Below are positions 11,314 to 60,974 of a DNA stretch of 64,000 nucleotides, one piece after another. Source of the DNA: a bacterium (GTDB taxonomy: Bacteria; SZUA-182; DTGQ01); contig JBFLZW010000072.1 of the NCBI GenBank assembly GCA_040755755.1, positions 12,574 to 76,573 of the forward strand. The letters are read 5' to 3'. Position 1 is the stretch's first letter, and each line of letters begins with the position of its first letter. The notes beneath the pieces are model-generated. The model searched no databases, was not told where the DNA came from, and worked only from the letters and a program-made list of their open reading frames with translations. The position numbers and the translations under genes are program-made.

Positions 11314-11351
11314 GGGGATATACTACCCGGGGATATAGGGGATATACTATA
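11314..11351. repeat. Three direct GGGGATATA(CTA) iteron-like repeats
   Basis: ggggatatactac-cc-ggggatata-ggggatatactata, read directly inside the AT-rich gene desert. Confidence 0.7.
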
Positions 11352-12028
11352 TGACAATATGAGGAAGCAATATGATCTACCGGCTTATTGTCATGTAAGG
11401 AGCCCCTTTCCTGGCATCCTGATTTCAGGTTATCAGCTTTTCCCTTCACTATTTTAAATTATTGCAACACTGATGCCAAGAGGATAAGTTAATTTTTAGC
11501 CAATTTTATTCCGATGTATTTTTTGTCCCTTTTGTACTGATTATAACTGAATGTTTTAGGATAATTAAGCACCTGATACCCATATCTTCAAGATCATGGT
11601 TCTTAAAAATATTTATGGCCATAAAGTCACCATTGACGATTCCCTCCAGGCGGTAATTTTTTTGATCCCTGGGAGGAGTGGCTTATGAGTTATATTTTCC
11701 AGGTCATCAATTTTATGTTCTTTTCGACGTAGATACTACATAAATTTAGTACCTGCAAAGAATATTGATTTTTATATCTATCTTACCATATTTTATACTA
11801 TGGTATATATATCATTTATACGAGCGATTGAAGCCGACCTTTCCCTTGTAGTCAATTATCAATATATTTTATATAATATAAAAAATGGTTCAATAATTTC
11901 ATGGAAAAAATAAAGTTGATACAATGCATCATCATATGTAAAAATTTGCATAGTACGCAATTCCATCTGCCTCTGGCGCAAGACCTGGCAGCAGCAGTAA
12001 AAAAATGCCATTCCGGAAAACAAAATTC

Positions 12029-12057
12029 TTTACAAAGAAGGGGAGAGTGTGTATAAT
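12029..12057 (+). promoter_or_regulatory. Sigma70-type promoter for tRNA-Glu (TTTACA-17-TATAAT)
   Basis: -35 TTTACA at 12029-12034, a 17-nt spacer, then -10 TATAAT at 12052-12057. The -10 ends 28 nt upstream of the tRNA 5' end. Confidence 0.6.
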
Positions 12058-12085
12058 CTGCTCTTACATTTACTCAATAAGAAAA

Positions 12086-12160
12086 GTCCCCATCGTCTAG
12101 CCCGGTCAAGGACATCGCCCTTTCACGGCGGTAACGGGGGTTCGAATCCCCCTGGGGACG
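12086..12160 (+). tRNA. tRNA-Glu (anticodon UUC)
   Basis: GTCCCCATCGTCTAGCCCGGTCAAGGACATCGCCCTTTCACGGCGGTAACGGGGGTTCGAATCCCCCTGGGGACG. It has a 7-bp acceptor stem, a GGGGG/CCCCC T-stem with a TTCGAAT loop, and the anticodon loop CTTTCAC. It closely resembles bacterial tRNA-Glu. CCA is not encoded. Confidence 0.95.
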
Positions 12161-12427
12161 CCTTTGTGATATTTTTCAGATACCTCTTTTCTTTAACCTT
12201 TCCATCTCATTTCAACTCATTCGATACCAGGCAGGATTGTGCAGGGTGCTTCTCATGTGTGTAGAAATTTGCACACTGCCTTGAGATTTCCCCGGCGGTG
12301 AGATACGCAAGAGAAACCTCTGGATAAATTCCTCCCTTCCTGATAAAATGATCTTCTCCGGGAAAGTATTCCACAAGGCGACTTTCACCACAGAACCAGA
12401 CACAAGCTCAGGGACAAGACGACCATC

Positions 12428-13627
12428 ATGCCGATGAGAGCAAAAGCGCTTACTCCACAAGGGAAAAAACTTATTGCAGGAATTTTCTTCCTGGCATTTT
12501 CCCTCGCAGCCCGTGCGGGCACCAGCAGGGATATCTTTGTGCCGGAAGATTTTCCTACCATTCAGGAGGCCATTGAGGCTTCGGAATTCGGAGATTCAGT
12601 CCGGGTCAGGCCCGGCATTTACTATGAACGGGTTATTATCCGGGAAGGCATCTCACTGGTAAGCGACAGCGGACCTGAGGGCGAAAGACTGATCAAGGGC
12701 CCCGGTGAGAAGCAGGTCCTTCAGCGGGCACTCAAGACCATTATCGATGGATCCAAACTCGATCCTCCGGATTATCTGGTGAGCTTTCAAAAGGAAAGCA
12801 CCTCTCCGATGAAACTCGATGGCTTTACCATCCGCAACCTTCCGACCAGGACTATCGATAAGCTGTACCTCGTGGAGGTACGGGGCTGCTCTGCGGAGGT
12901 TATCAACAATATCGTCTGTCAGAACCACTCGAAGGGGAAGGGAGGGGGCATGCTTCTGACAGGATTAGGCCCTTCCATGGGTTCCCCTTTGGAAACTGTG
13001 GCCAAACCGACTGTTCGTAACAACGTTATCTATGATAACTTCGGTGCAGGTATTGCCAATGGACCAAACTCGATGGCTCTTATCGAGGATAATGAGATTT
13101 TCAACAATCATTTCCAGCAGGCCAAAGATACAGAACAGGATGCGCCTGGTATTGGTATCAGGGAATATGCCAGGCCCCGGATCATCCATAATCTCTGCTA
13201 TCAGAATGGGAGCGGGATTGGCGGGCTCGATCTGGTCACTCACGATCGGCCGATCGTGATCCAGGACAATATTATCCGCCACAACTGGCGGGCCGGGATC
13301 GGCCTGACCGGAATCAACGATCGGCAGAAAAATATTACCGTCTCAATAGAGGGAAATGAAGTGTACGGGAACCTCAAGGCTGGAGTACGGCTTGAAAGTA
13401 TTACCGAGTCTAACCTGAAAGCCAATCAGATTCACCATAACCTGAGAGCGGGCATAGCCGTGCATGGGGGAGGAATCACCCGGATCATCCAAAATACTAT
13501 CTCCGGAAATCTTTCCGCCGGCTTAGTCATAGATACCCGTGAAGCCCTGGTCAGGCACAATATGATTTACCATAACCTGACCACGGGCATTACGGTCCTG
13601 CCTCCGTCCGAGACCGTGGAGAAATAG
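12428..13627 (+). CDS. Secreted right-handed parallel beta-helix (PbH1/NosD-like) repeat protein
   Basis: 399 aa with a signal peptide. It has repeated ~22-aa units containing N..I..N...GI (NNVIYDNFGAGI, DNEIFNNH, IRHNWRAGIGL, GNEVYGNLKAGVRL, IHHNLRAGIAV, ISGNLSAGLVI). Confidence 0.65.
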   Translation: MPMRAKALTPQGKKLIAGIFFLAFSLAARAGTSRDIFVPEDFPTIQEAIEASEFGDSVRVRPGIYYERVIIREGISLVSDSGPEGERLIKGPGEKQVLQRALKTIIDGSKLDPPDYLVSFQKESTSPMKLDGFTIRNLPTRTIDKLYLVEVRGCSAEVINNIVCQNHSKGKGGGMLLTGLGPSMGSPLETVAKPTVRNNVIYDNFGAGIANGPNSMALIEDNEIFNNHFQQAKDTEQDAPGIGIREYARPRIIHNLCYQNGSGIGGLDLVTHDRPIVIQDNIIRHNWRAGIGLTGINDRQKNITVSIEGNEVYGNLKAGVRLESITESNLKANQIHHNLRAGIAVHGGGITRIIQNTISGNLSAGLVIDTREALVRHNMIYHNLTTGITVLPPSETVEK

Positions 13628-18515: not shown

Positions 18516-21179
18516 TTATGGTTCCTGCAATTTTCGTGCCTTCACTTCAGCCTCTCCTAACAAAAATTGCAGTTGAGCGACCTGCTGATTGGCATTCTCG
18601 ACCAAAGACTGCTGCTGTGCCAGGGTGTCAAGTTTTACCTTGAGATCCTCCGCCATCAGATCCAGGTTTCTCATCCGATAATCAGCATCGTCAATCAATT
18701 GAACATTCTTCAGAATAGTTCCCATCTTCTCGTGAGTATCGGCAATCAAATCGTGAAGACTCTTCAGCTTGGCACCGACCTCATCCACCTTCTCGCTTTC
18801 GGAAAGCAGATTTTGCATCCTTGCCCGGATGTCCTGTGCCAGCAGCCGTACTTCCTGAATTTCACGGTTGGTCCTCTCGATCACATCTTTTCCGCCTGAT
18901 ATTTTTGCCAGGTTTTCATCAATTCCCTGGGATAGCTCCTCCAGAGTTCCGATCTTTCTCTCCAGCTCGGAGAGGGCGGCTTTGCGGCTGGTAAGCGTAT
19001 CGATTTTATGCTCGATATCCCGGTGCAGTTGAGAGAGATTTTGCAATTTATTTTCCATCTTGTCAATATCTATCATTCCATTCAAAACCCGGCCCACCCC
19101 TTCTTCCATCTGCCGCAGCAGATCCCGGAACTGCCCCCGGTGGCCCTCCGCTATTCCCTGGGCCTGGGTGCGCCAGTGTTCGAGGTCATTGATTTTATGG
19201 TCAATCGCCCCAAAGAGACTGGATATCCTGGTCTCATTTTCCACCATCTCAACATGAATCCGCTGGACTGCATCCTTATTCCGGTTGATTTGACTCACCA
19301 TCTGCCGTATCTCTTCAGCCTGGGTCTTCAGCTCTGCCAGTTGAGCAGCCTGTTCCTGAATCTGCTCTCTCTCGGCCTGCAATTCGGTGTTCCTGATCTG
19401 AACATCCTCGATAATGACTTTCAGGGCATTCAACCCCTCTTCGGCCTTCTCGACTTCGGATTTATTCTGAAGAACAACCCCGATCCGGGTTTCCAGCTCG
19501 TTACTGAGCTGGCTCAGCCGCAGAATCCGGTTCTCCAGATTCTGCACCAGGGCCTGCCGGTGTTCCAGCCGCCCCATCTTTTCATTCAGCTCGCCGGAGA
19601 GGGTGACCAATTTCTCCATTTGCTTGCGGGCATCTTCAATGTAATCGATCTGCTCGATGATTTCATCTTCCGTCCTGGACAGGTCTTCGGCCAGCTTTTT
19701 AATGTCCTGGATCTGGGATTCCAACTGGCCCAGCTCGGACCGTTTGTTTTCCAGATCGTTCATTCGATCCTCGATATCCATAAGGCTGGACGTCAGGGTT
19801 TCCACTTTGCTTTCAATCCGCTCGATCAGCTTGCTTTTCTCCTGGATCTTCTCTGCCTCGGATTGCATGTTGTGAGCCAAAAGGTCTATTTCCAGTAACT
19901 GGTTTTTCACCTCTTTAATGATACCCTTCTGATTGAGCACCTCTTCAAATTCCCGCTGCAGGTCCTGCAGTTCCTGATTCACCTGCTGAATCTGATCGTT
20001 CACCCGCTGAATGTCAGTCTGGAGGGCAAGAATTTCATCTCCTTTGCGTTCCGCATCTTCCAGCCGGGAATGCAGGTAGTCGATCCTCCCGCTCAGGTTG
20101 TTCATAACAGCCCGTGTCTCATTGAGCTCCCGGGTTTTATTGCTGATTTCCGTTGACAGGTTCTGGAGCTCCTCCATCCGTCCGGTAACAGCGGCCAGAA
20201 ATTCCTTGGCCTCGATAACCTGCCTGGTCTTGAGGTCTATCTCGTTGAACATGGATTCGAGCCGCCAGATATTCTTTTCCGTCTTTTTAATTAATTTATT
20301 CTCTTCGGCCAGTTTGTTGATCTTGGCTTCCATGTCCCAGAACAGGACATTGAGTCTTCCCGCTTCCTCATTGGCCTTTTCCACAATCAGCCGCTGCTGG
20401 GAAAGGGTATTCATTTTGGTTTTAATGTACTCGCCCAGGGAATTCAAACTGTCGAGTTTTTGCCGGGTGGATTCGTAAAGCTTTCGATCTCTGTCCAGCT
20501 CTTCGGCCTTTTGCCGCATATCGAAAGCCAGAGATTCATATTTGGCGACCTGCTCGGTAAAATTCTTCATTTTAGTGAGAGCATCCAGCCGCTCCTGCTC
20601 CATGCCCTGAAATTCACTGCGTAACTTTTTCGTCAGGGAGGAAAACTGGTTGGCCTCTTCCACTGCCAGGTCAATATCGACCTTGCGGTCGGAAATCTGA
20701 GCCATTTTCTCCCCCAGATCACGGGTTTGGGTCTGTAAAACATCAACCGTCCGGCCAATATGCTCGGCAGCCTGCTGAAACTGTCCGACCTCTTCCTTCA
20801 TCTGGTTGAAGACCTGGGCCTGGCCGCTCAGCTCATCGAATTTTTCAGACAACTCGAGAGCCAGGGTAGTAAAACTGTCCAGTTTCCGATTGACCTCGTC
20901 GATATTTTCCCGAAACCGCAGGACCTCGGTAATTTTCTTCTCCGTGGATTGAGACAAAAACTGCAGGGTCTCGACCCGCTTTTCAACCCGCAGGATCATC
21001 TCACTGTTTTCACAAAGGCTGGCTATCTGCATCCGGATCTGATTCAGCAAGGCCTCCAGACCTTCCCGCTCTTTCCTGGACTCCTCCAGCATATGACCCA
21101 GAATAGCCATGTTCTCGGCAAGGATTGATTCTTTGTTATCGCTTCGAAGCATAGACTGGCTTTGTATATCCTTATGCAT
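18516..21179 (-). CDS. 887-aa coiled-coil protein with no recognisable enzymatic motif
   Basis: Heptad-rich E/K/Q/L composition throughout. I can see no Walker A, TM segment or signal peptide. Confidence 0.6.
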   Translation of the reverse strand: MHKDIQSQSMLRSDNKESILAENMAILGHMLEESRKEREGLEALLNQIRMQIASLCENSEMILRVEKRVETLQFLSQSTEKKITEVLRFRENIDEVNRKLDSFTTLALELSEKFDELSGQAQVFNQMKEEVGQFQQAAEHIGRTVDVLQTQTRDLGEKMAQISDRKVDIDLAVEEANQFSSLTKKLRSEFQGMEQERLDALTKMKNFTEQVAKYESLAFDMRQKAEELDRDRKLYESTRQKLDSLNSLGEYIKTKMNTLSQQRLIVEKANEEAGRLNVLFWDMEAKINKLAEENKLIKKTEKNIWRLESMFNEIDLKTRQVIEAKEFLAAVTGRMEELQNLSTEISNKTRELNETRAVMNNLSGRIDYLHSRLEDAERKGDEILALQTDIQRVNDQIQQVNQELQDLQREFEEVLNQKGIIKEVKNQLLEIDLLAHNMQSEAEKIQEKSKLIERIESKVETLTSSLMDIEDRMNDLENKRSELGQLESQIQDIKKLAEDLSRTEDEIIEQIDYIEDARKQMEKLVTLSGELNEKMGRLEHRQALVQNLENRILRLSQLSNELETRIGVVLQNKSEVEKAEEGLNALKVIIEDVQIRNTELQAEREQIQEQAAQLAELKTQAEEIRQMVSQINRNKDAVQRIHVEMVENETRISSLFGAIDHKINDLEHWRTQAQGIAEGHRGQFRDLLRQMEEGVGRVLNGMIDIDKMENKLQNLSQLHRDIEHKIDTLTSRKAALSELERKIGTLEELSQGIDENLAKISGGKDVIERTNREIQEVRLLAQDIRARMQNLLSESEKVDEVGAKLKSLHDLIADTHEKMGTILKNVQLIDDADYRMRNLDLMAEDLKVKLDTLAQQQSLVENANQQVAQLQFLLGEAEVKARKLQEP

Positions 21180-21340
21180 TTCCTTCTCCCAAAAATGGTA
21201 AAATCGTCCAGGAACACTCGACCTGGCAGTAATTCCTGCAAACTACTCTGGCAGCCTGTCGAAAGACCCCGTGGAATCCCTGGGATCGTGCTTTTCATCC
21301 TGCCGTGAATGAGAGCTAGAGTAATAGGAATAATAAGTGA

Positions 21341-24181
21341 TCAATCGTCTATCTTTATATTATCATCTAAGCCCAATTCACGTAAAGCGATTTTGGTCTC
21401 TTCGATCTTTTGCTCTGAGATGCCCTCATCAGGAGCGACCTCTACTTTTAAGGTTAACTTTAGACCTTTGCCCACAGCAAACTTAGAAAGAACTTTGGTG
21501 TAAAAGTTCATCCATTTCTGTGGCTGGACATCTCCGGTCCAGGCCAATCTTGCGGCACCAGCTCTTGGCAAAGGCGAAGGTGTAACGGTAGCATTTCCTC
21601 CCCTCGGTTGTACCCCGGTGAAATCTGATAAATTGCCGGGCTCAGGCGGGACTGGAGGTCCCGGAGGCCATGCATAATTAGGAGTAGGTGTATCAGGTGA
21701 AGAGGATGTTTTTTTCGTGCTTAAGCAGGTTTCTGCAACCTCCTTGGTGATGATGAACATATCATCTGATATCTCCACTTCGTGAGCAGTCAAGCTTTTA
21801 TTGTAAATAAATGGATTATAATCACCCATCCCTGTCTTACCAACATAAGCCAGCAAACCGTTACTTACCCCCCTGGCGATGGTGTCTTTAATTATCTCAG
21901 GCTTAAGAAGCCTTGGGAATTGTGGTGAAGCGTAGAACATATCCCGAACGGACTTCGTGCTCCACTCCGTGAAAGCGGGAGGCCAGTTTGCTATCAATTT
22001 AAGGGGGCTATACCCTTCTGTTATCTCATCTTCCTGCCGTAGCCGGTTCAGGATAAAGGTAACTATGGTATCGGCTGCACTGGAATGAACCAACCCGAGG
22101 TCTATGGGGCGCATGGTGTTATCTTTGCCCAAAAATAATATGTTCTTATAGGTTCGCCAGACGCATTCCCTGAGGTCTCTTTGCGCTTTCTGGTGGCTTT
22201 CAAACAATTGGCGTCTTTGCCCCTCATCAAGACGATGGGACTCTTCCTCATCCCGAATGTCCTCCCAGGCAAGAGCTTTTCTCGCCTCATCGCGGATGGT
22301 ACTGGCTCCGTCCGGAATACACCAAATCAAGGCGCTTTTATAGGTTCTGGCTGAAGTACCATACTCTCTGGTCATGGTATCCACCCAATCGGTAGTCTTC
22401 CTTTCATCCTGCATTACCTGGTCAGGGGCAACAATTATTAACGTCAAGGCAGGCCGGTCAGGGATCTGGATGCTTTTTTCTGGGAAAAAGACTTGCTCTA
22501 CGATATTTGATCCGCAGGTGAATACCTTCTGTATCTCATTGCGTACCCGCTCATCGATCTTCGACGACTGGATGCTGGCCCTCCGGTCAGCCAAGATTTT
22601 ATTCAGGTTCTTTAAAAAGCTAAAGCGGTACTTATTTCGCTCCACACAGAGAAAATAACAGGTGTTGCTCAAGGCTTCAAGAACAGTCTCCACATTGCCG
22701 ATATCCAGTCCTGGTTCAGCTACAGCAATACGGATCTCAGGTACAGTGGCTTCAGCCTTCATTTGTCCTCCATTCGATTCGAAAAAAATGGCTGTAGCTG
22801 CTTTCTTATGAAGGCAGGCTTTTTTTATGGTATCCACTGCTTCCTTATCAAGACGGACAGCATGAGAATCCTGCTTGCCGCAAATGTCTGTGGTGACAGC
22901 AGTTTCAAACTGCTTGAGGTCACCACCCAATTGCTCGAGTAGGGCTGGACGAAACAGCATTGAATCATCGAGCGGGGCTGAACCAAGGCCAATGAGGGAA
23001 TCCCCATATGTTCTCTTATACCCTTCCTGGTAAGCCCTGGAAACCCATATGGCTAAAAGCCTCAAGATTCCCCGTGTCTGTTGAAAACGGGGTAATGCCT
23101 GCCACTTCCGCTCAAAGACTGAGAGCAATACCGGGTGGAACGGGTAGGTAGCTTCGAATGCTTCCCTGGCATGGTCAACAGGAAACCAGCTTGGAATCTG
23201 CAATCGATGGTCAACAATCCACTCTGCATATTCGCTGCAGGTTTGCTTCGCATCCCTGCTGAGTAAAACTTTCCCATCGCTGCCTACCGCTTGTAGTTCC
23301 CACTCAAATAACCGGCGACGAATAATCTCCGATGTTTCGCTCTCCGCAGACATAATTACCGCCTTGCCAAGACGGTCCAGCATCTTCTTGATACGCTCAT
23401 AATCCAGCTTGTCTTCAACGGTCATCTCCAATTCTTCAGATGCAGGTACAGACACTACCAGGACAATAGTTTTTTCACCACGAGCAGTCTCTGACAAATT
23501 ATGAAGAAAATCATAAAACTGTACTGACAGGCCGCTTTTGCGATTCCGGCTGACATAGTTCATCAACTCGTCCATAAGGATTAAGCAGGGCCGATCCTGG
23601 GGAAGTATTCTGCGGATTACATCTCCTGCCGGAGCAATCATCTGTTTTTCGTGCTCAGCCACAAGAGCAAAGGCTTCCTCGCCACCAAGCTGATAGGCAA
23701 TTTCACCCCAGGGAGTTTTCCGAATTGGTCTTCCGTCATGGCCGCCGCGGCCGGTTAAGGAATCGAATTCCGTACCGACAAATACGGCCGTAGCTGCCCT
23801 GGGCACACTGTTTATCCCTGCCTTGGACAGTATTTTATTCACCCCGGGCCAGCTATTGGCATCTGGTCCGCTCTGGGCCAGATGATAGAGCAAAGTCAAT
23901 GCGTGGGTTTTCCCGCCTCCAAATTGGGTAGCCATATTAAAAACAGCCGAGGCTTCAGTTCTCTCACCGGATAATCGTCGAAGAGCTTCAGAAGCAAGGG
24001 CTGTTAAATTTTGGGTCAGATAGGTACGTTCAAAAAACTGTCTGGGATTTTGATATACACCCGGCGCTCTTCCATCCCGAACCTGGTCGAGATGAACGGC
24101 AAACTCAGCAGCATCGAGAGGCTTGCCTTCACATAAATCTTCGCGCGGTGTAACAACCTTATACCAGGGTCTCAGGTTCAT
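21341..24181 (-). CDS. DUF499-type P-loop ATPase (BrxC/PglY-like N-terminus)
   Basis: 946 aa. The N-terminus PWYKVVTPREDL..AEFAVHLDQV..FFERTYLTQNL..RLSG is characteristic of the family. Walker A is QFGGGKTHAL and Walker B is CLILMDELMNY. The stop of the upstream MTase lies 13 nt from its start. Confidence 0.75.
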   Translation of the reverse strand: MNLRPWYKVVTPREDLCEGKPLDAAEFAVHLDQVRDGRAPGVYQNPRQFFERTYLTQNLTALASEALRRLSGERTEASAVFNMATQFGGGKTHALTLLYHLAQSGPDANSWPGVNKILSKAGINSVPRAATAVFVGTEFDSLTGRGGHDGRPIRKTPWGEIAYQLGGEEAFALVAEHEKQMIAPAGDVIRRILPQDRPCLILMDELMNYVSRNRKSGLSVQFYDFLHNLSETARGEKTIVLVVSVPASEELEMTVEDKLDYERIKKMLDRLGKAVIMSAESETSEIIRRRLFEWELQAVGSDGKVLLSRDAKQTCSEYAEWIVDHRLQIPSWFPVDHAREAFEATYPFHPVLLSVFERKWQALPRFQQTRGILRLLAIWVSRAYQEGYKRTYGDSLIGLGSAPLDDSMLFRPALLEQLGGDLKQFETAVTTDICGKQDSHAVRLDKEAVDTIKKACLHKKAATAIFFESNGGQMKAEATVPEIRIAVAEPGLDIGNVETVLEALSNTCYFLCVERNKYRFSFLKNLNKILADRRASIQSSKIDERVRNEIQKVFTCGSNIVEQVFFPEKSIQIPDRPALTLIIVAPDQVMQDERKTTDWVDTMTREYGTSARTYKSALIWCIPDGASTIRDEARKALAWEDIRDEEESHRLDEGQRRQLFESHQKAQRDLRECVWRTYKNILFLGKDNTMRPIDLGLVHSSAADTIVTFILNRLRQEDEITEGYSPLKLIANWPPAFTEWSTKSVRDMFYASPQFPRLLKPEIIKDTIARGVSNGLLAYVGKTGMGDYNPFIYNKSLTAHEVEISDDMFIITKEVAETCLSTKKTSSSPDTPTPNYAWPPGPPVPPEPGNLSDFTGVQPRGGNATVTPSPLPRAGAARLAWTGDVQPQKWMNFYTKVLSKFAVGKGLKLTLKVEVAPDEGISEQKIEETKIALRELGLDDNIKIDD

Positions 24182-24194
24182 ATTTCATTCTCCG

Positions 24195-27100
24195 TTAAAA
24201 TCCTAGCCCTTTTTTGCGAGCCAAGACACCGTCTACCCACCGCTTTTCATCACAATGAGCCGGGTAAAGAGCTGACAGTGCCTGGGCCAATCGCCAGAAG
24301 CGTTGATCGCGGCCTACACCCTTTTCCACTAAAAACCGTTTAAGGGCTTCACCCCGCCCTGCGGCAAAAAGGATCATGCTTTGATGAATGCGGTCGAGGA
24401 TGGTGATGCCGAGTTTTGGTACATTCTTTTCCCCCCAGCCTCCACTTTCCTCTTCAACCTCATCAAGGGTGACAAAAAGAGCAAGTTGTCTCGTTTTTTT
24501 CTTCTGCTTTTTTGCCTGGGGAGCCTTATCTTCATCCTTGCCAAAAAGATGCCTTGTCCGTTCCGATACCGGCATGAGTCGAGCCTTATCCCCTTTTACT
24601 TCCACTATGCTTGTCAAATGCTCCAGGTGGGCTCCAAGACCCTGGGCGATTTTTCGAGCCGCGTCATACTCAAGGACAAAGCCGCTTACTTTAATTCCAG
24701 TGGCAGGTGATTCTTCATCCTCGGTGTCGTCTTCTTGTCTTTCATTAGGGACAGATTTAGCCTTACCATTGCCATTTCCGTTTCCGTTCCCGTTTACACC
24801 GGTCGAGAGGGTCCACAGCCACATGGCCGTGAGCCGGGCATCTTCTTCAAATCCGGTGGCATCTGCTCCCTTAAAGATCATATTCAAGGCTTCCCTGGAA
24901 ACAGTAGCCCAGACGTGTTCGAGATATTCTCTGAGTGTCACTTGTTCACCGCTGGCCTTCTCTACCCTTGAATATCGAGAGAAGATTTCCAGGGCTGGAC
25001 CAAGACAAGCGAAAATGGCGTCGGCACCGACGACACCTTCGGCGGATAGACGGGGCATCCATTCATGGATGCGGGTGGGAAGTTCTGCGAGGATGTCACG
25101 CCAATCGCCGATGTCGGCGGGGTGGAGGAGATCGTTGAGTTTTTGGCGGGGACGGCAGACGAGATGAACTGAAGACATCAAACGAGACTGCCCGATACCA
25201 GCAACTTTTGTGGCCATTTCAGTATCGATTGGCCACGAGCCTGTAATTATCCAGCCAGCATCCATCATTGCCTGTAGTTGAGCCTCCCATCCAGATGTAG
25301 ACTTATGAGCGAAGACAACTACGCCAATGCCGCCTGGGGATAGTATTCGCTGCCCTTCCGACATTGCCTGTGTCATCTTTTTAAGGTAGAAATTTACATC
25401 CTTGATACCAACACTCTCGACAGGTGTTGGCTCAACAATTATCTCTTCGGCTTTTGGAGTTAGTGGGGATTCCCACTGTTTTCCATTTAAGGTTCTTCTT
25501 AACCAAACATAAAAGAAGTCACTTAAATCTGCATAGCTGATCATGTCGTAGTAGGGTGGATCTGTAAAAAAACATTGAGCTGCACTATCGGGTAAAGGGT
25601 GCGCGGTTGCAGAAGAGCATTCAATTTGGCCAACCGACCAGTTACAGCCAATATTGGAAAGTGTCTTTACCAATGTATCAAAAAAAACTTTGAATGAACC
25701 ACTCGAAATGCTTAAAGGCACTCCTTCTGCAAAGTCCCATACCATTGGGATTGCTTGTCTTCCAAAAAGATGTCGAGGACATTGCGCAATAGGTTCCCAT
25801 GCATTTAAAGAATTTCCCAAGTCAGCCTGTTTATCCAATACTAAAGCTAATAATGACTGTATTGCTGAAGCTAATCCTTTTTCATGGTTGGTTGCTACCT
25901 TTTCCCCTGCTTTATGTACTAGCCGCGAAAAGGTTGATAGCATAAGTGCTTGACGGGGCGTAAAAACATCTCCCCATGTTTCCATCCCATAGAGTGGAAC
26001 CCGGTTAACAGAATGAGGTAATGGATTAACCGGCTCATTGGGCAAAAGTGATAATTGGCCTACATGCGCTTTATCACGCTGTTTTAGTTCTTGAGCTGCA
26101 TTCTTAAGAATTTTTATATCATAATCATTAGGTAGACGGTAAAATCGTCCCTGCTGACCCACTCGAGTTGTTACTATACAAAGTAGCACTGCATCTGCTG
26201 TCCCACCCTTTCTCTCTTTCAATTGCCGCCGCACCGAATCCACTTGAGTAGTAAATCCACAGCAAGGACAAGTAGCAGACCCACGACGAACCGTCCCATC
26301 TTTTATATCCTGGGCTTTAGCGTTCTGGATTATCTCGAAATCCACACGTTTTTCTCTTTGATTTGGAACCATCCGCAGCGCTACAGACCTGCTCCCCTTC
26401 TTAGCCAACCACAGGGACCTTATCAATGGCACCTCCGCTCCACACCCTGGCCCTTCACACCTAATAGTCCTCGCCCAAAGGTAGGCAATAGGCGTAGCGC
26501 CATCCGGATCTTTGGGGTAAAACTCGGCCAATTCTTTTTCCGCTTCCTTTTTTATCCACTCACCCCATTTGCGAACTTCATTAGCTAACTGCTGGCCATA
26601 CTTTGGGATGTATTCCAGCACTACCTTATTGAGAAGCACAGCAACAGGATTTAGATCACTGGCAAAAGCATCCGCTCCTACTCTCAATGCTTCCAGGGGA
26701 ATAGACCCGCCCCCGGCAAAAGGGTCCACCACAAGAGGCTTTGTTCCCGGCATGCCGCCCAATGCCTCATGAGCGGTTTGGGTTAAGGCCCTGCTGGTTT
26801 CCAGATATTCTCCTCTGGTTGAATTGTCCCAGTTGGAAAAATCGGCTATGAAATCAAGCAGTGCATATCGCAGCTCCAAGTTATCGTTAAATTTATCAGG
26901 GTTTTTCTGAAAGCCTATAAATCGCTTGAGACTTTCGGGGCTCAATAATGCGCGGTAATTATTGGCCCATTTTCGTATCCACTCCTTTGCTGCTTCCCGG
27001 AACGAATCAGGACAAAGAGGGTCTGCCGGATCTGGCCACAGGGCTGCACATATCACCGCACGGCAGGCTGCGAGTGGCCGTCGCGCCCACCAGATATGGA

Positions 27101-27206
27101 GGGTGGAGATATGCCCATGCCTTATGCTTTTTTCCCTGCGGGCATTTTCAGAAATCCGCTTGATGGGAAGATCCACTTCGATTAATCGCTTGGGGTATCG
27201 ATTCAA
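24195..27206 (-). CDS. DUF1156-type DNA methyltransferase with Zn-ribbon (N6A/N4C class, DPPY)
   Basis: 1003 aa. N-terminus KRLIEVDLPIKRISENARREKSIRHGHISTLHIWWARRPLAACRA (DUF1156), SAM motif VVDPFAGGGSIP, Cys4 ribbon (CEGPGC...CPCCG) and catalytic FTDPPYYD. The start is TTG. It contains an internal (NG)5 insert. Confidence 0.8.
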   Translation of the reverse strand: MNRYPKRLIEVDLPIKRISENARREKSIRHGHISTLHIWWARRPLAACRAVICAALWPDPADPLCPDSFREAAKEWIRKWANNYRALLSPESLKRFIGFQKNPDKFNDNLELRYALLDFIADFSNWDNSTRGEYLETSRALTQTAHEALGGMPGTKPLVVDPFAGGGSIPLEALRVGADAFASDLNPVAVLLNKVVLEYIPKYGQQLANEVRKWGEWIKKEAEKELAEFYPKDPDGATPIAYLWARTIRCEGPGCGAEVPLIRSLWLAKKGSRSVALRMVPNQREKRVDFEIIQNAKAQDIKDGTVRRGSATCPCCGFTTQVDSVRRQLKERKGGTADAVLLCIVTTRVGQQGRFYRLPNDYDIKILKNAAQELKQRDKAHVGQLSLLPNEPVNPLPHSVNRVPLYGMETWGDVFTPRQALMLSTFSRLVHKAGEKVATNHEKGLASAIQSLLALVLDKQADLGNSLNAWEPIAQCPRHLFGRQAIPMVWDFAEGVPLSISSGSFKVFFDTLVKTLSNIGCNWSVGQIECSSATAHPLPDSAAQCFFTDPPYYDMISYADLSDFFYVWLRRTLNGKQWESPLTPKAEEIIVEPTPVESVGIKDVNFYLKKMTQAMSEGQRILSPGGIGVVVFAHKSTSGWEAQLQAMMDAGWIITGSWPIDTEMATKVAGIGQSRLMSSVHLVCRPRQKLNDLLHPADIGDWRDILAELPTRIHEWMPRLSAEGVVGADAIFACLGPALEIFSRYSRVEKASGEQVTLREYLEHVWATVSREALNMIFKGADATGFEEDARLTAMWLWTLSTGVNGNGNGNGNGKAKSVPNERQEDDTEDEESPATGIKVSGFVLEYDAARKIAQGLGAHLEHLTSIVEVKGDKARLMPVSERTRHLFGKDEDKAPQAKKQKKKTRQLALFVTLDEVEEESGGWGEKNVPKLGITILDRIHQSMILFAAGRGEALKRFLVEKGVGRDQRFWRLAQALSALYPAHCDEKRWVDGVLARKKGLGF

Positions 27207-27230
27207 ACCGCATGCTCCCTGAGAATTTAC

Positions 27231-27578
27231 TTATTTTTCTAGTTCTTCAATAATTTTTTCTATTTTTTCTTTTAACTCAGGAATCTTGTCCTGTATAGCA
27301 TCCCATACAATATCCCAGTTCACTCCAAAATAATAATGGATAATTTTATCTCTCATCCCAGCGATTTTTTTCCATTGAATGTCTGTGTATCTTTTTTTGA
27401 AATCATGAGAAAGACTTTTTACTGCTTCACCAATAATTTCAAGGCTTCTGGTGCAACCTCTTTTCAGTAATTCATGAGAGATAAAATCTTCATAGGTAAA
27501 TCCGCTGGTTTCATGTAAGAGAAATTTTGTTTCATCCAGGATATGTTTAAGATACGGTAAGTTCTGCTTCATAACCAC
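27231..27578 (-). CDS. HEPN (DUF86) toxin of a HEPN/MNT pair
   Basis: 115 aa with the Rx4H motif in GMRDKIIHYYFGV. It overlaps the upstream MNT gene by 10 nt. Confidence 0.8.
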   Translation of the reverse strand: MVMKQNLPYLKHILDETKFLLHETSGFTYEDFISHELLKRGCTRSLEIIGEAVKSLSHDFKKRYTDIQWKKIAGMRDKIIHYYFGVNWDIVWDAIQDKIPELKEKIEKIIEELEK

Positions 27579-27868
27579 TTGATCTCTTTTTCTACGTGTG
27601 GTTGAATATAGGGACTCAAACTGCCTTTCGTTATAAGTTCTATCTTTCTACCAAATAAATCTTCAAGATAAAAAGCGAGATCCATAAAATTATCAAAACT
27701 GGGAGTTTCAAACTCGATAAGAAAATCTATGTCACTATTTTCTTTTTGTTCTCCTCTGGCATAAGAACCAAATAATCCTATCCTTTTAACTTTATACTTT
27801 CTCAAAATATCACTGTGCTCTCTCAGTGCTATGAGTATCCCTTCCTCTGTAAGTTCCTTGCTCTTCAT
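27569..27868 (-). CDS. Minimal nucleotidyltransferase (MNT) antitoxin
   Basis: 99 aa with the GLFGSYARGEQKENSDIDFLIEF (GSx10DxD) signature. Confidence 0.85.
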   Translation of the reverse strand: MKSKELTEEGILIALREHSDILRKYKVKRIGLFGSYARGEQKENSDIDFLIEFETPSFDNFMDLAFYLEDLFGRKIELITKGSLSPYIQPHVEKEIKWL

Positions 27869-28009
27869 TGTAAACTCCCAAAATGCTCAGTTCTCCCTTT
27901 GGGAGGGGAGCATTACCAGTTTGTCAAAATCGAATTTCTCGTTCTCCATCCAGATCACCTCTCGCACCCTGTTGAGATGGCATGATTGACGGTTACGGTG
28001 CATTGGTTT

Positions 28010-28111
28010 CTATACTCTTAACGAATGGGTAATCCTCCCTCGGCAGTCATGTTCAGAAATCCGCTTGATGGGAAGATCTACTTCGATTAACCGCTTGGGA
28101 AACTGAGTCAA
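28010..28111 (-). pseudogene. Orphan 5' fragment of a DUF1156 methyltransferase gene (first ~20 codons, then divergence and a stop)
   Basis: My translation is TTG-TQFPKRLIEVDLPIKRISEHDCRGRITHSLRV*. Positions 28052-28099 match 27147-27194 at 46/48 nt. The TTG overlaps the stop of the 184-aa gene (TTGA). Confidence 0.75.
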
Positions 28112-28662
28112 GTTGCTCTCTCTTCTGGAATTTGCTGGGATTCTTTAATGATTTGATCGACTTTATGAGCTGCTGATCGAGCCTCATCCACACTGATATG
28201 CGGTTTCAGTTCATTAATCTTGCGAGCCCTGGTCTCGACATCTCCATCAAACTCATAAGTCACATAGAGTGCTGTAGCCAGACATTCAAGTTCAGTTACT
28301 TTCTTACTACCAAGTTTTTCTGCAATGAATTTTACCTGATTATCATATCTTTTCAAGGTCTTGGGAAAGCGATCCTTTAACAGTTCGCTTCCTTCATCCG
28401 GGAGGAGACTAGGGCCATAAGGGTAGGGCTGAGGCTGCAACCTAATTAGCGCGTCTGCCCTCATAGCTGTAATTTCATCATTCAGATCAAATGAAAACGG
28501 CCCATGTTTGTATAAGGTGAACTCAAAACCTAGCGGAACTCCTAGCATTTGTTGAAGGAAATAGGCTGCCTTTTGGATGTGTGTCTCCCCACACCAACTC
28601 CCATGATCCTTAAGGTTTTTGGCCAATGACAGGAGTATAGCAGCACGTTGTAATCTTTTCAT
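28108..28662 (-). CDS. YwgA-like / Panacea (DUF4065)-like protein of unknown function
   Basis: 184 aa. THIQKAAYFLQQMLGVPLGFEFTLYKHGPFSFDLNDEI fits the (K)LQK..Y......F.F..Y.[YH]GP[YF]S..L pattern of YwgA/SocA-type proteins. A GGAGGA RBS precedes the ATG. Confidence 0.4.
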   Translation of the reverse strand: MKRLQRAAILLSLAKNLKDHGSWCGETHIQKAAYFLQQMLGVPLGFEFTLYKHGPFSFDLNDEITAMRADALIRLQPQPYPYGPSLLPDEGSELLKDRFPKTLKRYDNQVKFIAEKLGSKKVTELECLATALYVTYEFDGDVETRARKINELKPHISVDEARSAAHKVDQIIKESQQIPEERAT

Positions 28663-28760
28663 GATTCTTCCTCCTCTTTCGGAGCGATTATAGTTTCACG
28701 ATTTTCTTTTAACCAGTTCTCGGCCTTATCTCTATGTTCCGGAGAAATAAAAACATTCGC

Positions 28761-28918
28761 TACCGGACACTTTTTTTTCAATTCCTGTAATCAACCGCGA
28801 ATGCACACGAATAGACGCTAATAAATTCTTTTGATTTGCCTTCATTATCGAGTCCTCTTTGTTCAGTTCGCGTTCATTCGCGTTCATTCGCGGTTGTTAC
28901 CTCAAAAGTGTCCGGTAG
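28761..28918. mobile_element. MITE-like palindromic element (~158 bp) with nested inverted repeats
   Basis: Outer inverted repeat: taccggacactttt (28761-28774) / aaaagtgtccggta (28905-28918). Inner inverted repeat: caaccgcgaatg (28792-28803) / cattcgcggttg (28885-28896). There is an internal 10-bp tandem cgttcattcg x2. A 9-bp direct repeat taaaaacat lies at 28748-28756 and 28923-28931. Confidence 0.5.
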
Positions 28919-29022
28919 AGAGTAAAAACATAGTCTATAGCGGCAACCGGTACATTCTTTAATGAATTCGATAGAGCCAATGACGAAATGATGCGCTCGT
29001 CTTTGGCTTGTATAGGGGTAAT

Positions 29023-29053
29023 TACTCAGGCACAGAGCTTCTGTGCCTGAGTA
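29023..29053 (-). terminator. Perfect 13-bp stem-loop downstream of the helicase gene
   Basis: tactcaggcacag-agctt-ctgtgcctgagta, read directly. There is no strong U-tract on the minus strand, so terminator function is uncertain. Confidence 0.4.
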
Positions 29054-29118
29054 GTTACTACTATTTTATGTATTCACATTCATGTGAGGGGATACACTTG
29101 TAGTCGATAGAGATTGCA

Positions 29119-32100
29119 CTATTCATTCTTGCAGTTTTTCTCACCAAGTATCGCCTTGGCCCCCACATGGTAATGCTCAATCTTTACCAGAGGTTGCCAG
29201 CCTAAACGTACCGGGTCCTGAATGGTATGTACCTCTGGCATATCAGCGCAATTAAACACAACATAGAGCCAGTAATCTTCCCTGAGCCTCTGGGCAGTCT
29301 TATATTCGTTGGTTGTCATGGCCACATCACCTACTGCAGCCCGTCCCTTTACTTCAATGAATCGAACCTCGGTGGCTGTTTTCGGGTCTTCAGGGTGCAG
29401 TTTCCGGGAGATAAGATCAAAGCCCCTATCCTCATTTTCGACACTTTCAACAACCCAGCCACGGGCTTCTTCATGAGCGATAGCCTTTTGTACTGCGATC
29501 CTCTCGATTTCCTCATCGCGAACCATAGGAGCAATATCGGGTGTTGAACGCTCCGGATGAGGCAATACCCAGGCTCGTCCCTGGTGCTGAATATCAGAAA
29601 TGGTGCAATGGCGCTCCTGCTGTAATTCCTCCCTGCGCCGCTCTAAGCGAGCGTTCAATATATCGATACGATCCTCGGTAGTTTTGATATTGGCAGACAG
29701 CAGGGGATTAGTCTCGCCGGATTGCTGGCTTTCCAGCAATTCCGCCATCCTTAAATTTTGACGATGGATCAATTCATTCAGGCTGATCTCCATATGGCGG
29801 GTTATGGTTTCGATTTCCTTCTCCCTTTGGGCGCTGATTTCATCGAGAAAAGGATGCAGGGCCTTCTCAATAAGAAATTGTTCGACCCGGCCACGGTCAG
29901 GCATGGCATCATCGTCTAAAGTTTTAGTACCGACAGGTGCCGGGGTTAAATCTAAAAAAATGGTGGGTTGCCGAACGGCCATCGTGCCGTCAAGATTGGT
30001 TTGAACTACAAAAAGACGCCGGTGAAGAATATTCCCACACCCATCACGGATCGCTGCTGAGAAAACATCCAATCGACTGGGCTCTTTATGGTGAAGATCA
30101 AAGAACACCGCACCCCGTCGAAGGTCATTCTGCACCTGATCCAGGACATCTTCTCTGACGCACTCAAATAAGGGGTGTCCCGGTGTTATCCACTCCAGGG
30201 TAGGATCATCGGTGAGGAGATTCTTATCAAAGACAATTTGTTTGTATTCTCGTCCCAGTTTGCCGAAACGTGCCTCAATCCGCTCGCCCACTGGCCAGAG
30301 CGTCCGGGGAATACGGCCGATTCGATAAATGTGTGAGTCTTTCTTTCCCATCTCTTTTCCCTTAGGGGAAGCAGCCTGGGATGTAAGGACCTTGGGATGT
30401 ACGCCGACCAAAGGACCGGATTGAACAAAAAAATCCTCAATTACCTCGGGGACCAGCCGCCGCTCTTTCGCTTCTGCGGATTTTCCTACTATAGCTGAGA
30501 GATTCAGCTCTCGCTTGGCCAGTCCTTCCAGGGTGGAATGAGTGATCCTCCGGAACCGCTCAATATCTACCTGCTCAACAATACGATCCTTAATGACTTC
30601 CTCGGTAAGGTTATGAGCATACATATCACGGAGCATACGCTCAAGCTGATTCGAAGGAAAGACATCGCCGAGAACATTAAATATCTTGCCGGTACGCTTC
30701 GGATCAAGATCATCCTCAATACTTTTAATACGCTCAAACAGTTTGTGTAAAACACGGCCCTCGCGGGTATTGGTTGAAACGAAGTTAAAAATCAGGCAAT
30801 CTTTTTCCTGACCGTAGCGGTGAATACGGCCCATGCGCTGCTCAAGGCGTACTGGATTCCAGGGGATATCGTAATTGATCATAAACCAGCAAAATTGCAG
30901 GTTTATACCTTCGCCTGCCGCTTCGGTGGCGACCATAATCTGGCTTTCCTCACGGAATTCACGCTCTGCATAGATACGGGTCCCCGGGGTATCCCGGTCG
31001 CCGATTTTCATGCCGCCATGAATCTGCGTGACCTCAAGTCCCCATTCACGCAGCTTTCCCAACGGGCGGTTATCTTTACCGTCACCAACCAGATAGTCGA
31101 GTGTATCTTTATGTTCAGTAAAGATGAGAAGTTTCATCTTCGGGTCATGAAATATCCCCTGTTTGGTAATGACTTCCTTGAGCTTTACCAGTTTGGATTC
31201 AATTTCCCTTTGCTCTAAAAGATATGCCTGGTCAATGAGTTTGGCGAGCTGCAAAATCTCTTCCTTGAGCGCAGGAGGATCGACCGATGCAACCACATTC
31301 TCTAATTGGGTAATGATTTCCTGTTGTTCATCTTCCGGAAGGTCATCGAAATCATCAGGAACTTTTTTGAGGATTTGTTCTTTTCGGTAGCCATCAGGAT
31401 CAGCCAGGATCTTTTCTCGCTTGGCTTTCATACGCTCAAGGCTTCGGCGAACGGCATAAATGCTGGAAGCAAACCGGCGTTGCAGCATAGCCATAGTAAA
31501 GCCAAGTGCACGGCCGCGGGCTGAGTCATCTGCCGCAGCTTTGATGGATTGATCCTCTACATACCGGGTCAGGTTGTCATAGAAATCCCATTCTTTCTCA
31601 CAAATCTGAAATTCTGTAGTCTGAACCTTGCGTTTTGAAAAAAGAGCTTTCACTTGTTTTGTATCAGGATCGGGAAAGGTTACTAACGCTTCCTTAACAC
31701 GGCGGAGATAAAAAGGAGCTTCACGCCGCTTCATGGCCTCTTCCAGGCTTTTAACGTCACCATAGACATCATTATCCAGGAGTTCGAGAAACAGGCAGAA
31801 GTTCTTGGGATCGCCCTTGTGCGGTGTGGCTGTCATAAGGAGATAATGGTCGGTCATGTGCGATAGGGACTCACCGAGTTGATAAGCCAGCGTTTTTTTA
31901 TCCGAACTATATGCACTCATCTTATGGGCTTCATCGACGATAATCAAATCCCAGTGGCTGCGAAGAAGGCTTTCTTTGGCATCTTCAATCCGTGAAACCC
32001 AGGATACTGAGGTGATAACCTGATTTCTCTCCTGCCAGGGATTAGAGCCATAATTTGCCCGCAGGATTTCTCCCCGGATGATTTCAAATTGCTCGCGAAA

Positions 32101-32619
32101 TTTGTCTTTCATCTCACGCTGCCACTGAAACGATAAATTGGCAGGCGTGACAATCAAGGTGCGCTTAATCAATCCCCGAATTTTCAGCTCCTTAATTAAG
32201 AGGCCCGCCATGATTGTCTTCCCTGCTCCCGGATCATCGGCCAGCAGAAAACGGATGCGTGGCAGCTTCAGGAAATAGTCATAGACTGCCTCCAACTGAT
32301 GTGGCAATGGATCAACCCGGGCAATGGATAAGGTAAAGTAAGGATCATATTCATAGGCCAGGGCGAGTCGTATGGCCTCAATCCCAAGGCGGAACCGCGA
32401 GGCATCTCCATCGAATGGCTCCTTTTCCGGCGTAGTTTCCAGGGTGGCTAACTGCTCAGGCGATAAGACAGGCTCATACACCTGGCCGCTTTTCATACCC
32501 TTACCAATGAGCTTGATGCATTCGCCCATAGGGATAGTCGTAATCACCTGGACCGGTTCGGGAAGTATCGGCCCTTGGATAATCATATTTGGTTTAGGTA
32601 TTATTCCATCATCTTTCAA
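29119..32619 (-). CDS. SNF2-family helicase with a C-terminal DUF3883-like (PD-(D/E)xK fold) domain
   Basis: 1166 aa with helicase motifs LADDPGAGKT (I), LIIVDEAHKM (II), LLMTATP (III) and QRMGRIHRYGQ (VI). The C-terminus has GWVVESVENEDRGFDLISRK...RFIEVKGR. The start is ambiguous: TTG at 32619 or ATG at 32586. Confidence 0.8.
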   Translation of the reverse strand: MKDDGIIPKPNMIIQGPILPEPVQVITTIPMGECIKLIGKGMKSGQVYEPVLSPEQLATLETTPEKEPFDGDASRFRLGIEAIRLALAYEYDPYFTLSIARVDPLPHQLEAVYDYFLKLPRIRFLLADDPGAGKTIMAGLLIKELKIRGLIKRTLIVTPANLSFQWQREMKDKFREQFEIIRGEILRANYGSNPWQERNQVITSVSWVSRIEDAKESLLRSHWDLIIVDEAHKMSAYSSDKKTLAYQLGESLSHMTDHYLLMTATPHKGDPKNFCLFLELLDNDVYGDVKSLEEAMKRREAPFYLRRVKEALVTFPDPDTKQVKALFSKRKVQTTEFQICEKEWDFYDNLTRYVEDQSIKAAADDSARGRALGFTMAMLQRRFASSIYAVRRSLERMKAKREKILADPDGYRKEQILKKVPDDFDDLPEDEQQEIITQLENVVASVDPPALKEEILQLAKLIDQAYLLEQREIESKLVKLKEVITKQGIFHDPKMKLLIFTEHKDTLDYLVGDGKDNRPLGKLREWGLEVTQIHGGMKIGDRDTPGTRIYAEREFREESQIMVATEAAGEGINLQFCWFMINYDIPWNPVRLEQRMGRIHRYGQEKDCLIFNFVSTNTREGRVLHKLFERIKSIEDDLDPKRTGKIFNVLGDVFPSNQLERMLRDMYAHNLTEEVIKDRIVEQVDIERFRRITHSTLEGLAKRELNLSAIVGKSAEAKERRLVPEVIEDFFVQSGPLVGVHPKVLTSQAASPKGKEMGKKDSHIYRIGRIPRTLWPVGERIEARFGKLGREYKQIVFDKNLLTDDPTLEWITPGHPLFECVREDVLDQVQNDLRRGAVFFDLHHKEPSRLDVFSAAIRDGCGNILHRRLFVVQTNLDGTMAVRQPTIFLDLTPAPVGTKTLDDDAMPDRGRVEQFLIEKALHPFLDEISAQREKEIETITRHMEISLNELIHRQNLRMAELLESQQSGETNPLLSANIKTTEDRIDILNARLERRREELQQERHCTISDIQHQGRAWVLPHPERSTPDIAPMVRDEEIERIAVQKAIAHEEARGWVVESVENEDRGFDLISRKLHPEDPKTATEVRFIEVKGRAAVGDVAMTTNEYKTAQRLREDYWLYVVFNCADMPEVHTIQDPVRLGWQPLVKIEHYHVGAKAILGEKNCKNE

Positions 32620-32694
32620 ATTAGAATAATTCGCCTCTTTTTTCTAATGGATTCCCATTTTTAAGAGGATTACAAGGAATCTCCGACAAGGCTG

Positions 32695-60260: not shown

Positions 60261-60268
60261 TTTATTGA

Positions 60269-60847: not shown

Positions 60848-60974
60848 AGAGGACTAACCATCAGTAATTCAGCCAGTTCCTTTGTCGTGTAAGACTCTTT
60901 TTCCATTACAATCTTACCTTATCGTTAGGCAGCAAATCTATTTTTTTCAAGTATTCTAATTGTATACTTAAATA

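Follow-up and report, generated by a model that had tools for sequence, protein, structure and literature searches.

What kind of system is encoded by the block of minus-strand genes that interrupts an ordinary chromosomal region in a bacterium of the GTDB lineage SZUA-182 (DTGQ01), and what are the smaller genes inside it? The window analyzed here is a stretch of 64,000 nucleotides (nt) from contig JBFLZW010000072.1 (assembly GCA_040755755.1), and all coordinates are positions within it. The original prediction, made from the letters alone, described a PglZ-less operon of a helicase, a DUF1156 methyltransferase and a DUF499 ATPase, with the nuclease tail of the helicase as likely effector, and took it for a poorly characterized candidate defense system. 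That core reading is right, and the system behind it is already catalogued. Very probably, we are dealing with an intact copy of the Hma system (helicase, methylase, ATPase), also called Type-1 BREX-related (BR), that was inserted as about 11.5 kb of DNA, carries passengers, and would act by a restriction-like mechanism that we infer below.

Identity and boundaries of the block

Profiles from PADLOC, Pfam and NCBIfam were applied to the proteins of the block. The three large proteins have as their best PADLOC matches, all full-length, HmaA (7.2e-191, 635 bits, residues 13-1134), HmaB (1.1e-131) and HmaC (2.3e-117), well above the PADLOC models for DrmD, BrxH, PglX and generic DUF1156 or DUF499 proteins. 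Pfam recovered the domains that had been expected: SNF2-rel_dom, Helicase_C and NOV_C (the former DUF3883, 4.9e-21) in HmaA, DUF1156 (3e-22) and MethyltransfD12 in HmaB, and DUF499 (5e-22) in HmaC. The name Hma dates from 2021, when 1,638 loci in 26 phyla were described (PMC8565338), and with PADLOC matches of roughly 1e-117 to 7e-191 the block is no uncatalogued candidate. The anti-phage helicase-methylase-ATPase architecture that the original prediction mentioned, without being sure of the family, is this same one. The kind of system is thus already named, catalogued and partly validated, and the locus is a further intact copy.

The motifs first read by eye all lie where they are expected. 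HmaA has GAGKT131, DEAH229, QRMGRIHRYGQ594, GFDL1066 and IEVKG1088, and its nuclease residues D1068, E1089, K1091 and E1105 are all present. HmaB has motif I (DPFAGGGS161), then four cysteines (C250, C255, C313 and C316), then motif IV (DPPY549). HmaC has GGGKTHAL88 and LILMDE200; its Walker A motif begins at residue 88, leaving no room for an N-terminal HEPN fusion. We compared these residues with a reference set of 80 other Hma loci from reference genomes, in which conservation could be scored in 62-80 loci. The helicase motifs and nuclease residues of HmaA are essentially invariant in 62-73 loci; the nuclease tetrad is kept in 71-73 of 72-73, with K1091 and E1105 present in all. Motif I, the four cysteines and DPPY of HmaB are near-invariant across 78-80 loci. 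Every locus scored keeps Walker A of HmaC (GGGKTH88-93), and 61 of 62 keep its Walker B (DE204-205). Since the equivalent catalytic residues are all present and essentially invariant, the Hma core looks complete and, judged by its residues, enzymatically competent. The co-directional order hmaA-hmaB-hmaC is common to the window and nearly all 80 reference loci, and the 13-nt gap between hmaB and hmaC was confirmed. The solved structure nearest to HmaA is RapA, a sequence match over residues 74-297.

The block sits in the intergenic spacer between a gene for an ABC substrate-binding protein and a gene for a coiled-coil protein. Three relatives (L171, L172 and L173) share the flanking synteny and lack the block; the phosphofructokinase (PFK) of these empty-site hosts is 86-87% identical to that of the window. 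Their homology to the window ends at 32695/32693 and restarts at 21212/21202. The left-off point near 32695 is the stop codon of the substrate-binding-protein gene, the restart near 21212 is just upstream of the coiled-coil gene, and the spacer at the empty site in L173 measures 62 nt. Because these relatives are without the block, it is read as an insertion of about 11.5 kb with defined boundaries, and the comparison indicates that it was acquired horizontally and is without mobility genes. Among the window open reading frames (ORFs) scanned with Pfam there was no integrase, transposase or other mobility gene, and megablast against Escherichia coli genomes gave no match.

The guanine-plus-cytosine (GC) content is 46.9% in the block, 48.4% in the hma genes alone and 51.7% in the rest of the window. 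The embedded cargo is at 39.6%, and the cassette of a minimal nucleotidyltransferase (MNT) and HepT within it is at 35.8%; the very low values in the block are due to this cargo. The contrast with the flanks that had been noticed by eye is therefore real, and it is modest. The block holds six intact genes, all co-directional and closely spaced (Table 1). Four of them had been placed at the right coordinates in the original prediction, which missed the MNT/HepT pair.

Table 1. Features of the inserted block, in order of transcription after the first row
Feature	Position	Strand	Size, basis or remark
Whole inserted block	21213..32694	-	about 11.5 kb; Hma system and embedded cargo
hmaA: Snf2-family helicase/translocase with C-terminal NOV_C (DUF3883) PD-(D/E)xK nuclease	29119..32619	-	1166 aa
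Strong, near-perfect hairpin	29012..29064	.	25-nt arms, 3-nt loop; between hmaA stop and HD remnant
HD-domain gene remnant	28665..29016	-	last ~60 codons, in two frames; tblastn
MITE-like palindromic insert splitting the HD remnant	28757..28921	.	~165 nt; inverted repeats
YwgA-like gene, orphaned from its HD partner	28108..28662	-	184 aa; resembles DarG C-terminal antitoxin-like region
hmaB': truncated duplicate of the hmaB 5' end	28043..28111	-	start codon overlaps YwgA-like stop
Spacer of mobile MNT/HepT unit	27869..28042	-	38-aa ORF inside; 91-96% identical to L089
mntA-like nucleotidyltransferase (type VII antitoxin)	27569..27868	-	99 aa; Pfam NTP_transf_2 1.3e-16; PADLOC PDC-S09 1.6e-34
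hepT-like HEPN RNase (type VII toxin)	27231..27578	-	115 aa; Pfam HepT-like 7.6e-26
hmaB: DUF1156 N6-adenine-type DNA methyltransferase with nested Zn-finger target-recognition insert	24195..27206	-	1003 aa
hmaC: DUF499 AAA+ (ORC/Cdc6-like) ATPase	21341..24181	-	946 aa

Proposed mechanism and known relatives

The mechanism proposed for this block is inferred from its domain content and from published work on homologs. HmaB would mark host DNA with N6-methyladenine, being a methyltransferase of the N6-adenine type whose target-recognition insert has a Zn finger. HmaC, an ORC/Cdc6-like AAA+ ATPase, would recognize unmodified or foreign DNA, or license action on such DNA. HmaA, as a Snf2 translocase, would then bring its C-terminal PD-(D/E)xK nuclease to the invader and nick or cut it. 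The MNT/HepT pair may add an independent layer of abortive infection or addiction, or simply stabilize the locus.

The only member of the family tested so far is that of Halomonas meridiana. Its HmaA alone protects E. coli from phage T4, and this defense depends on its helicase domain and on residues D1084, E1104, K1106 and E1121 of the NOV_C nickase (2024 study, PMC11232893). The window protein has the same Snf2 core and NOV_C domain, and D1068/E1089/K1091/E1105 form the same D...ExK...E tetrad. The Halomonas locus embeds Septu and an AAA_21 pair, whereas the window locus embeds modules that resemble toxin-antitoxin systems.

These experiments also supply the main rival to the proposed mechanism, which is that HmaA is a self-sufficient nickase, triggered by a sensor in the manner of abortive infection, with HmaB and HmaC as regulators or in another role and no discrimination by methylation. 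In the only experimental study, hmaA alone was protective, its protection collapsed at high multiplicity of infection, and infected cells were intact but slow-growing (PMC11232893). T4 grown on a host expressing HmaB was still restricted by HmaA, and 15-19% of hmaA homologs have no hmaB or hmaC (PMC11232893). We nevertheless consider this rival unlikely, as hmaB and hmaC show strong conservation and tight linkage to hmaA. Enzymatic roles are suggested by their near-invariant AdoMet-binding, DPPY and Walker A and B motifs and by the distance of only 13 nt between the two genes here. Because T4 DNA is hypermodified, the negative methylation test carries little weight. The homologous trio in Type-3 BREX, moreover, works with a methyltransferase (PMC12839542).

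The continued restriction of HmaB-conditioned T4 and the hmaA homologs without partners also weigh against the reading of the block as an intact, restriction-like operon, and so do several other points. Methylation-based discrimination of self from non-self is an assumption of the model, and logic of the restriction-modification kind is unproven for any Hma. Structure searches found no solved structure for HmaB or HmaC. Scans for promoters and terminators did not rise above shuffled controls, so an operon is assumed on the strength of gene spacing and direction only. Finally, decay of the embedded region shows that the locus suffered deletions, and a loss of regulation is conceivable.

How does this Hma system relate to other defense systems with similar parts? 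Type-1 BR, the name given to the Hma family of the 2021 PADLOC study (Payne et al. 2021) in a 2026 comparative study that describes a matching architecture, has the same three proteins in the same order and with the same domains, likewise has genes embedded between hmaA and hmaB, and stands alone outside a defense island (PMC12839542). Its description includes the Zn-finger recognition insert nested in the methyltransferase, as well as N-terminal TUDOR and inactive restriction-endonuclease/alpha+beta domains in the helicase and a C-terminal RRM in the ATPase (PMC12839542). In protein set, order and the domains found, the core of the window locus does not differ from this family; its particulars are a DUF499 protein without N-terminal HEPN domain, its own cargo, and the hmaB 5' stub.

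Type-2 BR (a PLD/HKD helicase with DUF1156, DUF499 and DUF3780 proteins) shares a homologous methyltransferase, ATPase and Snf2 helicase core. We rejected membership, as none of the six block proteins has a PLD or DUF3780 match in Pfam. The PADLOC PLD_Helicase match is weak (1e-30), with its best stretch in helicase-core residues 558-633, and the Type-2 BR scores in NCBIfam are far under their cut-offs (200.6 vs 1000, 134.8 vs 1200 and 158 vs 1100). BREX/Type-3 BR has a homologous trio of a BrxHII-like helicase, a PglXI-like methyltransferase (4e-13) and an ORC-like ATPase. It differs in that PglZ, BrxA and BrxF/iSTAND are absent here and that the window helicase bears its own nuclease. Membership in any type of BREX or in Type-3 BR was rejected, with no PglZ, BrxA, BrxB(F) or BrxC found among the six block proteins and four flanking proteins covered by this search. 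The assignment of DUF499 as the ATPase domain of BrxC/PglY is outdated: BrxC is now best matched by DUF6079, of which DUF499 is a sister family (PMC12839542), and HmaC has no BrxC or PglY match in PADLOC at E<=1e-3. DISARM was rejected as well, as the block has no genes of the DrmA, DrmB or DrmC type; HmaA scores 422 bits against DrmD profiles (635 against HmaA) and 357.6 against an NCBIfam DrmD cut-off of 610.

Several side observations concern HmaB and its homologs. In hmaB, a hexanucleotide repeat (24775-24795) gives rise to a GNGNGNGNG linker. This linker separates the methyltransferase core from the C-terminal region, where HmaB is acidic and poorly conserved; the repeat is in frame and so is no obvious phase-variation switch. 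Some HmaB homologs (P0127, P0136, P0140, P0180, P0182, P0215 and P0235) reach 1170-1440 aa and have extra domains: DprA-like PF02481 before DUF1156, Macro (PF01661) after it, or PF04480. These are possible additional sensor or effector fusions. A search of viral contigs returned three full-length hmaB matches (IMG/VR contigs L174, L175 and L176, 33-59% identity) and no free hmaB fragments, which suggests that Hma is occasionally carried on prophage-like elements and is rare on viral contigs.

Passengers between hmaA and hmaB

Genes are embedded in 62.7% of Hma loci according to one survey (bioRxiv 10.1101/2024.01.29.577857). Embedding is the norm: we found gaps of at least 400 nt in 46 of 54 Hma loci, in line with the published 63-67%, and in 45 of 70 loci by another count. 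The gap between hmaA and hmaB in the window is 1.9 kb. It holds what the sequence identifies as two unrelated passengers, a decayed HD-YwgA cassette and an intact MNT/HepT pair. The gaps of 456 nt and 239 nt around the YwgA-like gene, which had looked empty, contain remnants of an HD gene, a MITE-like element (after miniature inverted-repeat transposable elements) and hmaB'.

The 184-aa protein was correctly called YwgA-like, as annotators of the Joint Genome Institute name its family 'YwgA'. The family is large and tightly conserved, with 3785 homologs in bacteria and archaea that are about 55-73% identical to the window protein. Had it been a conserved fourth component of the system, as was suspected, it should recur in Hma loci. 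It occurs in 1 of the 80 others (L028), where it again has an intact HD gene and lies directly after hmaA. On five further contigs, none of which is an Hma locus, it lies directly downstream of a gene of about 330-440 aa with HD and HD_assoc_2 domains; these contigs stand for four different contexts, with L002 and L003 as one pair of duplicates and L004 and L005 as another. An HD gene thus precedes it in 6 of 6 other loci, 5 of them non-Hma. The two genes overlap by 4 nt in three loci and are 1-13 nt apart in the others. Coordinates of the pair are 8677-10546 in L001, 8698-10549 in L002, 8691-10567 in L004, 9012-10567 in L006 and 5346-7183 in L028.

The same partner once stood in the window. 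With HD proteins from L001-L006 as queries, tblastn found its remnant at 29016-28924 (residues ~376-408, 61-65% identity) and 28790-28665 (residues ~392-436, E 4e-9). Its last 4 nt overlap the start of the YwgA-like gene, the arrangement typical of intact pairs. It lies in the 456-nt gap upstream of the YwgA-like gene and is split there by the MITE-like element. This element is bounded by terminal inverted repeats of 18 nt that are 94% complementary, and inside it are an inverted repeat of 30 nt and three tandem copies of a 10-nt repeat; no second copy of this insert was found within the window. A hairpin lies at the edge of the deletion that took most of the HD gene. It is terminator-like on the plus strand only and lacks a T-tract on the coding strand.

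Both PADLOC and NCBIfam match the YwgA-like protein to the C-terminal part of DarG, in an alignment limited to DarG residues ~164-315. Its AlphaFold2 model has a predicted local distance difference test score (pLDDT) of 93.6, and the only significant matches of this model in the Protein Data Bank are chains D and B of 7yk3, the Mycobacterium tuberculosis DarTG complex, which are ~187 residues long (template-modeling score 0.68-0.70). Membership in DarTG itself was rejected: the protein has no macrodomain and the gene no DarT neighbor, its usual partner being the HD hydrolase that is absent here. The pairing with HD genes outside Hma, the HD remnant and the likeness to DarG together indicate that a two-gene HD-hydrolase/YwgA cassette has degraded here and that the YwgA-like gene, its antitoxin-like half, survives. 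We therefore rejected it as an Hma component, given its presence in 1 of 80 loci and its HD partner in non-Hma contexts. HD and YwgA form a conserved, translationally coupled two-gene module that is widespread in bacteria and archaea, outside Hma loci. As the predicted fold of the small partner is that of the DarG chains in 7yk3, the pair may be a toxin-antitoxin or defense module. The HD and HD_assoc_2 hydrolase, of ~435 aa, is weakly dGTPase-like in PADLOC. A literature search for YwgA/YwfO and for the HD-YwgA pair found nothing relevant.

Such decay raises the question whether the whole locus is a non-functional relic of a defense island. About 375 codons of the HD gene have been deleted, the embedded region has taken up a MITE-like element and an incomplete second copy of hmaB and shows an odd hairpin, and mobility genes are absent from the ORFs scanned. 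We consider this very unlikely, as hmaA, hmaB, hmaC, mntA and hepT are full-length ORFs that align end to end with their homologs, and all catalytic residues checked are intact.

The second passenger, between the YwgA-like gene and hmaB, is a pair of genes that overlap by 10 nt. Type VII toxin-antitoxin systems combine a HEPN RNase with an Rx4-6H motif and a minimal nucleotidyltransferase encoded by overlapping genes, and the window pair has these features. It shares with HepT/MntA of type VII (for example Shewanella SO_3166/SO_3165) the HEPN Rx4H toxin (RDKIIH), the GSx10DxD nucleotidyltransferase (readable as GSYARGEQKENSDID), the gene overlap and the order with the antitoxin first, and differs in being embedded in a defense operon. 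The NCBIfam HepT/MntA equivalog scores of 49.6 and 34.4 are below the cut-off of 60, and we therefore consider the pair a divergent type VII member. The genes of the pair have a GC content of 32-34% (31.9% for hepT).

The pair is bracketed by a direct repeat formed by hmaB' and the true start of hmaB. The 33-aa ORF of hmaB' reads MTQFPKRLIEVDLPIKRISEH... and was compared with the N-terminus of HmaB (tblastn E 4e-06). At the nucleotide level, 28043-28136 and 27138-27231 form a 94-nt repeat with 77% identity and a spacing of 905 nt. Four other contigs (L087-L090) share with the window, at 92-94% identity, a unit of about 1 kb that comprises the spacer, MNT, HepT and the beginning of hmaB. In L089 the layout of hmaB', cassette and hmaB is the same as in the window. 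In L090 the YwgA-like gene ahead of the unit has only 71% identity to that of the window, and across L087-L090 the YwgA-like flank next to the unit is 71% identical or unalignable. From 28025 onward, the spacer is 95% identical to L087. In L087 and L088, which are one shared locus, the unit follows ruvA and is itself followed by a decaying 190-nt hmaB fragment, with no Hma system.

That fragment appears in L087 (9009-9233) and L088 (5381-5605) as a 74-aa 'DUF1156' ORF with a 3-nt insertion and a mutated WW motif. It has been carried with the MNT/HepT cassette into the ruvC-ruvA neighborhood, and stand-alone DUF1156 gene calls may be relics of this kind instead of real genes.

Did this unit arrive together with the rest of the locus? 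MNT has relatives of at least 90% identity in other genomes; six other window proteins checked, among them three housekeeping proteins, HmaC and the YwgA-like protein, have none. When the window is compared with L089, nt 1-33 of the left copy (hmaB') are 73% identical and thus recipient-like, nt 34-63 are 97% identical, the cassette is 92-96% identical, nt 1-63 of the right copy (hmaB) are 94-97% identical and thus cassette-like, and nt 64-190 of hmaB are 89% identical, all of these segment values resting on small counts. This mosaic is suggestive of a unit with a short hmaB 5' arm that recombined within an invariant 30-nt core, as such an event would be expected to leave it. The low GC content of the cassette, the close relatives of MNT only, the identity to L087-L090 beside a divergent flank, and the mosaic together indicate that the MNT/HepT unit arrived later than the rest of the locus.

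It is tempting to speculate on how it came. MNT/HepT could be a small, homology-targeted passenger that carries a copy of about 60-70 nt of the invariant hmaB 5' end, loops out and re-inserts elsewhere; we offer this as a tentative model that may well be wrong. Recombination between hmaB' and hmaB would give a circle of about 0.9 kb, with 27232 joined to 28042 across a single hmaB repeat, and the circle would re-insert in Campbell fashion at the hmaB start in other Hma loci. The junction sequence tied to this model is GGATTTCTGAACATGACTGCC. The unit is known from five loci only, which counts against the generality of the model.

Three broader versions of the idea were rejected. The scar is not a general Hma feature, as a second hmaB 5' fragment occurs in 0 of the 80 other Hma loci. 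Homogenization of the hmaB 5' end at the DNA level was judged by pairwise codon identity (synonymous sites) at conserved hmaB residues between loci, which is 0.359 in the N-terminal part and 0.365 elsewhere (p = 0.50). A systematic link of the MNT/HepT family to Hma also failed: 0 of 80 more distant loci show it, and only the clade of at least 90% identity is linked. An unrelated MNT/HepT pair fills the same slot in L085.

Could the YwgA-like protein, the MNT/HepT pair or both be integral accessory parts of an Hma variant with four to six genes? The six genes share one direction and lie close together, the order YwgA-like gene, hmaB', MNT, HepT, hmaB recurs on L089 and L090, and an embedded system can work together with its host, as in the case of BrxU and BREX (an example given in bioRxiv 10.1101/2024.01.29.577857). 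We nonetheless find this highly improbable. The MNT/HepT pair, like the YwgA-like gene, is found in 1 of the 80 other Hma loci. YwgA homologs are paired with an HD gene away from Hma, and that partner is deleted here. None of the 80 more distant MNT-HepT loci adjoins Hma genes, and in L087/L088 the unit stands behind ruvA with no Hma system at all. Reading both as passengers of an intact Hma core fits these distributions.

Surroundings and significance

The neighbors of the block are ordinary chromosomal genes: Mrp-type antiporter subunits, the ABC substrate-binding protein, the coiled-coil protein, a polysaccharide deacetylase and PFK. The host is an uncultured bacterium; a search with its PFK gave matches at 86-94% identity, and those with a named phylum, at ~69%, come from metagenome-assembled genomes of Omnitrophota, Chlorobi and Spirochaetota. 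Directly downstream of the insertion, 18516-21179 encodes an 887-aa protein that scores above cut-off for SpiroCoCo_C in NCBIfam (168.9 vs 125 bits) and for the LA_3659 family (65.8 vs 36 bits); its PADLOC matches to LmuB and JetC are coiled-coil noise. The empty-site relatives have this protein in the same place, so it does not belong to the defense block. Two further low-GC stretches of the window (43-46%), at 10000-13000 and 60000-62000, could be other acquired segments. The first adjoins the only tRNA gene of the window (tRNA-Glu, 12086-12162), followed by two beta-helix/NosD-like genes. Rfam and tRNA scans of the window found this tRNA gene only, and it is unrelated to the block.

The locus does not add a new type of system: Hma is in PADLOC, its relatives have NCBI-style models, and one of its components has been validated. 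Its value lies in a clean, intact Hma core whose boundaries are known from empty-site relatives. It also shows two stages of cargo turnover side by side, with one cassette decaying and one recently arrived. The HD-hydrolase/YwgA pair is flagged here as an uncharacterized two-gene module and is a reasonable candidate for a toxin-antitoxin or defense system. The hmaB scar is a testable hint at how cargo enters Hma loci. If the model is true, homology-targeted re-insertion would be a concrete mechanism for at least some of the cargo embedding in Hma loci, which is unexplained in the literature.

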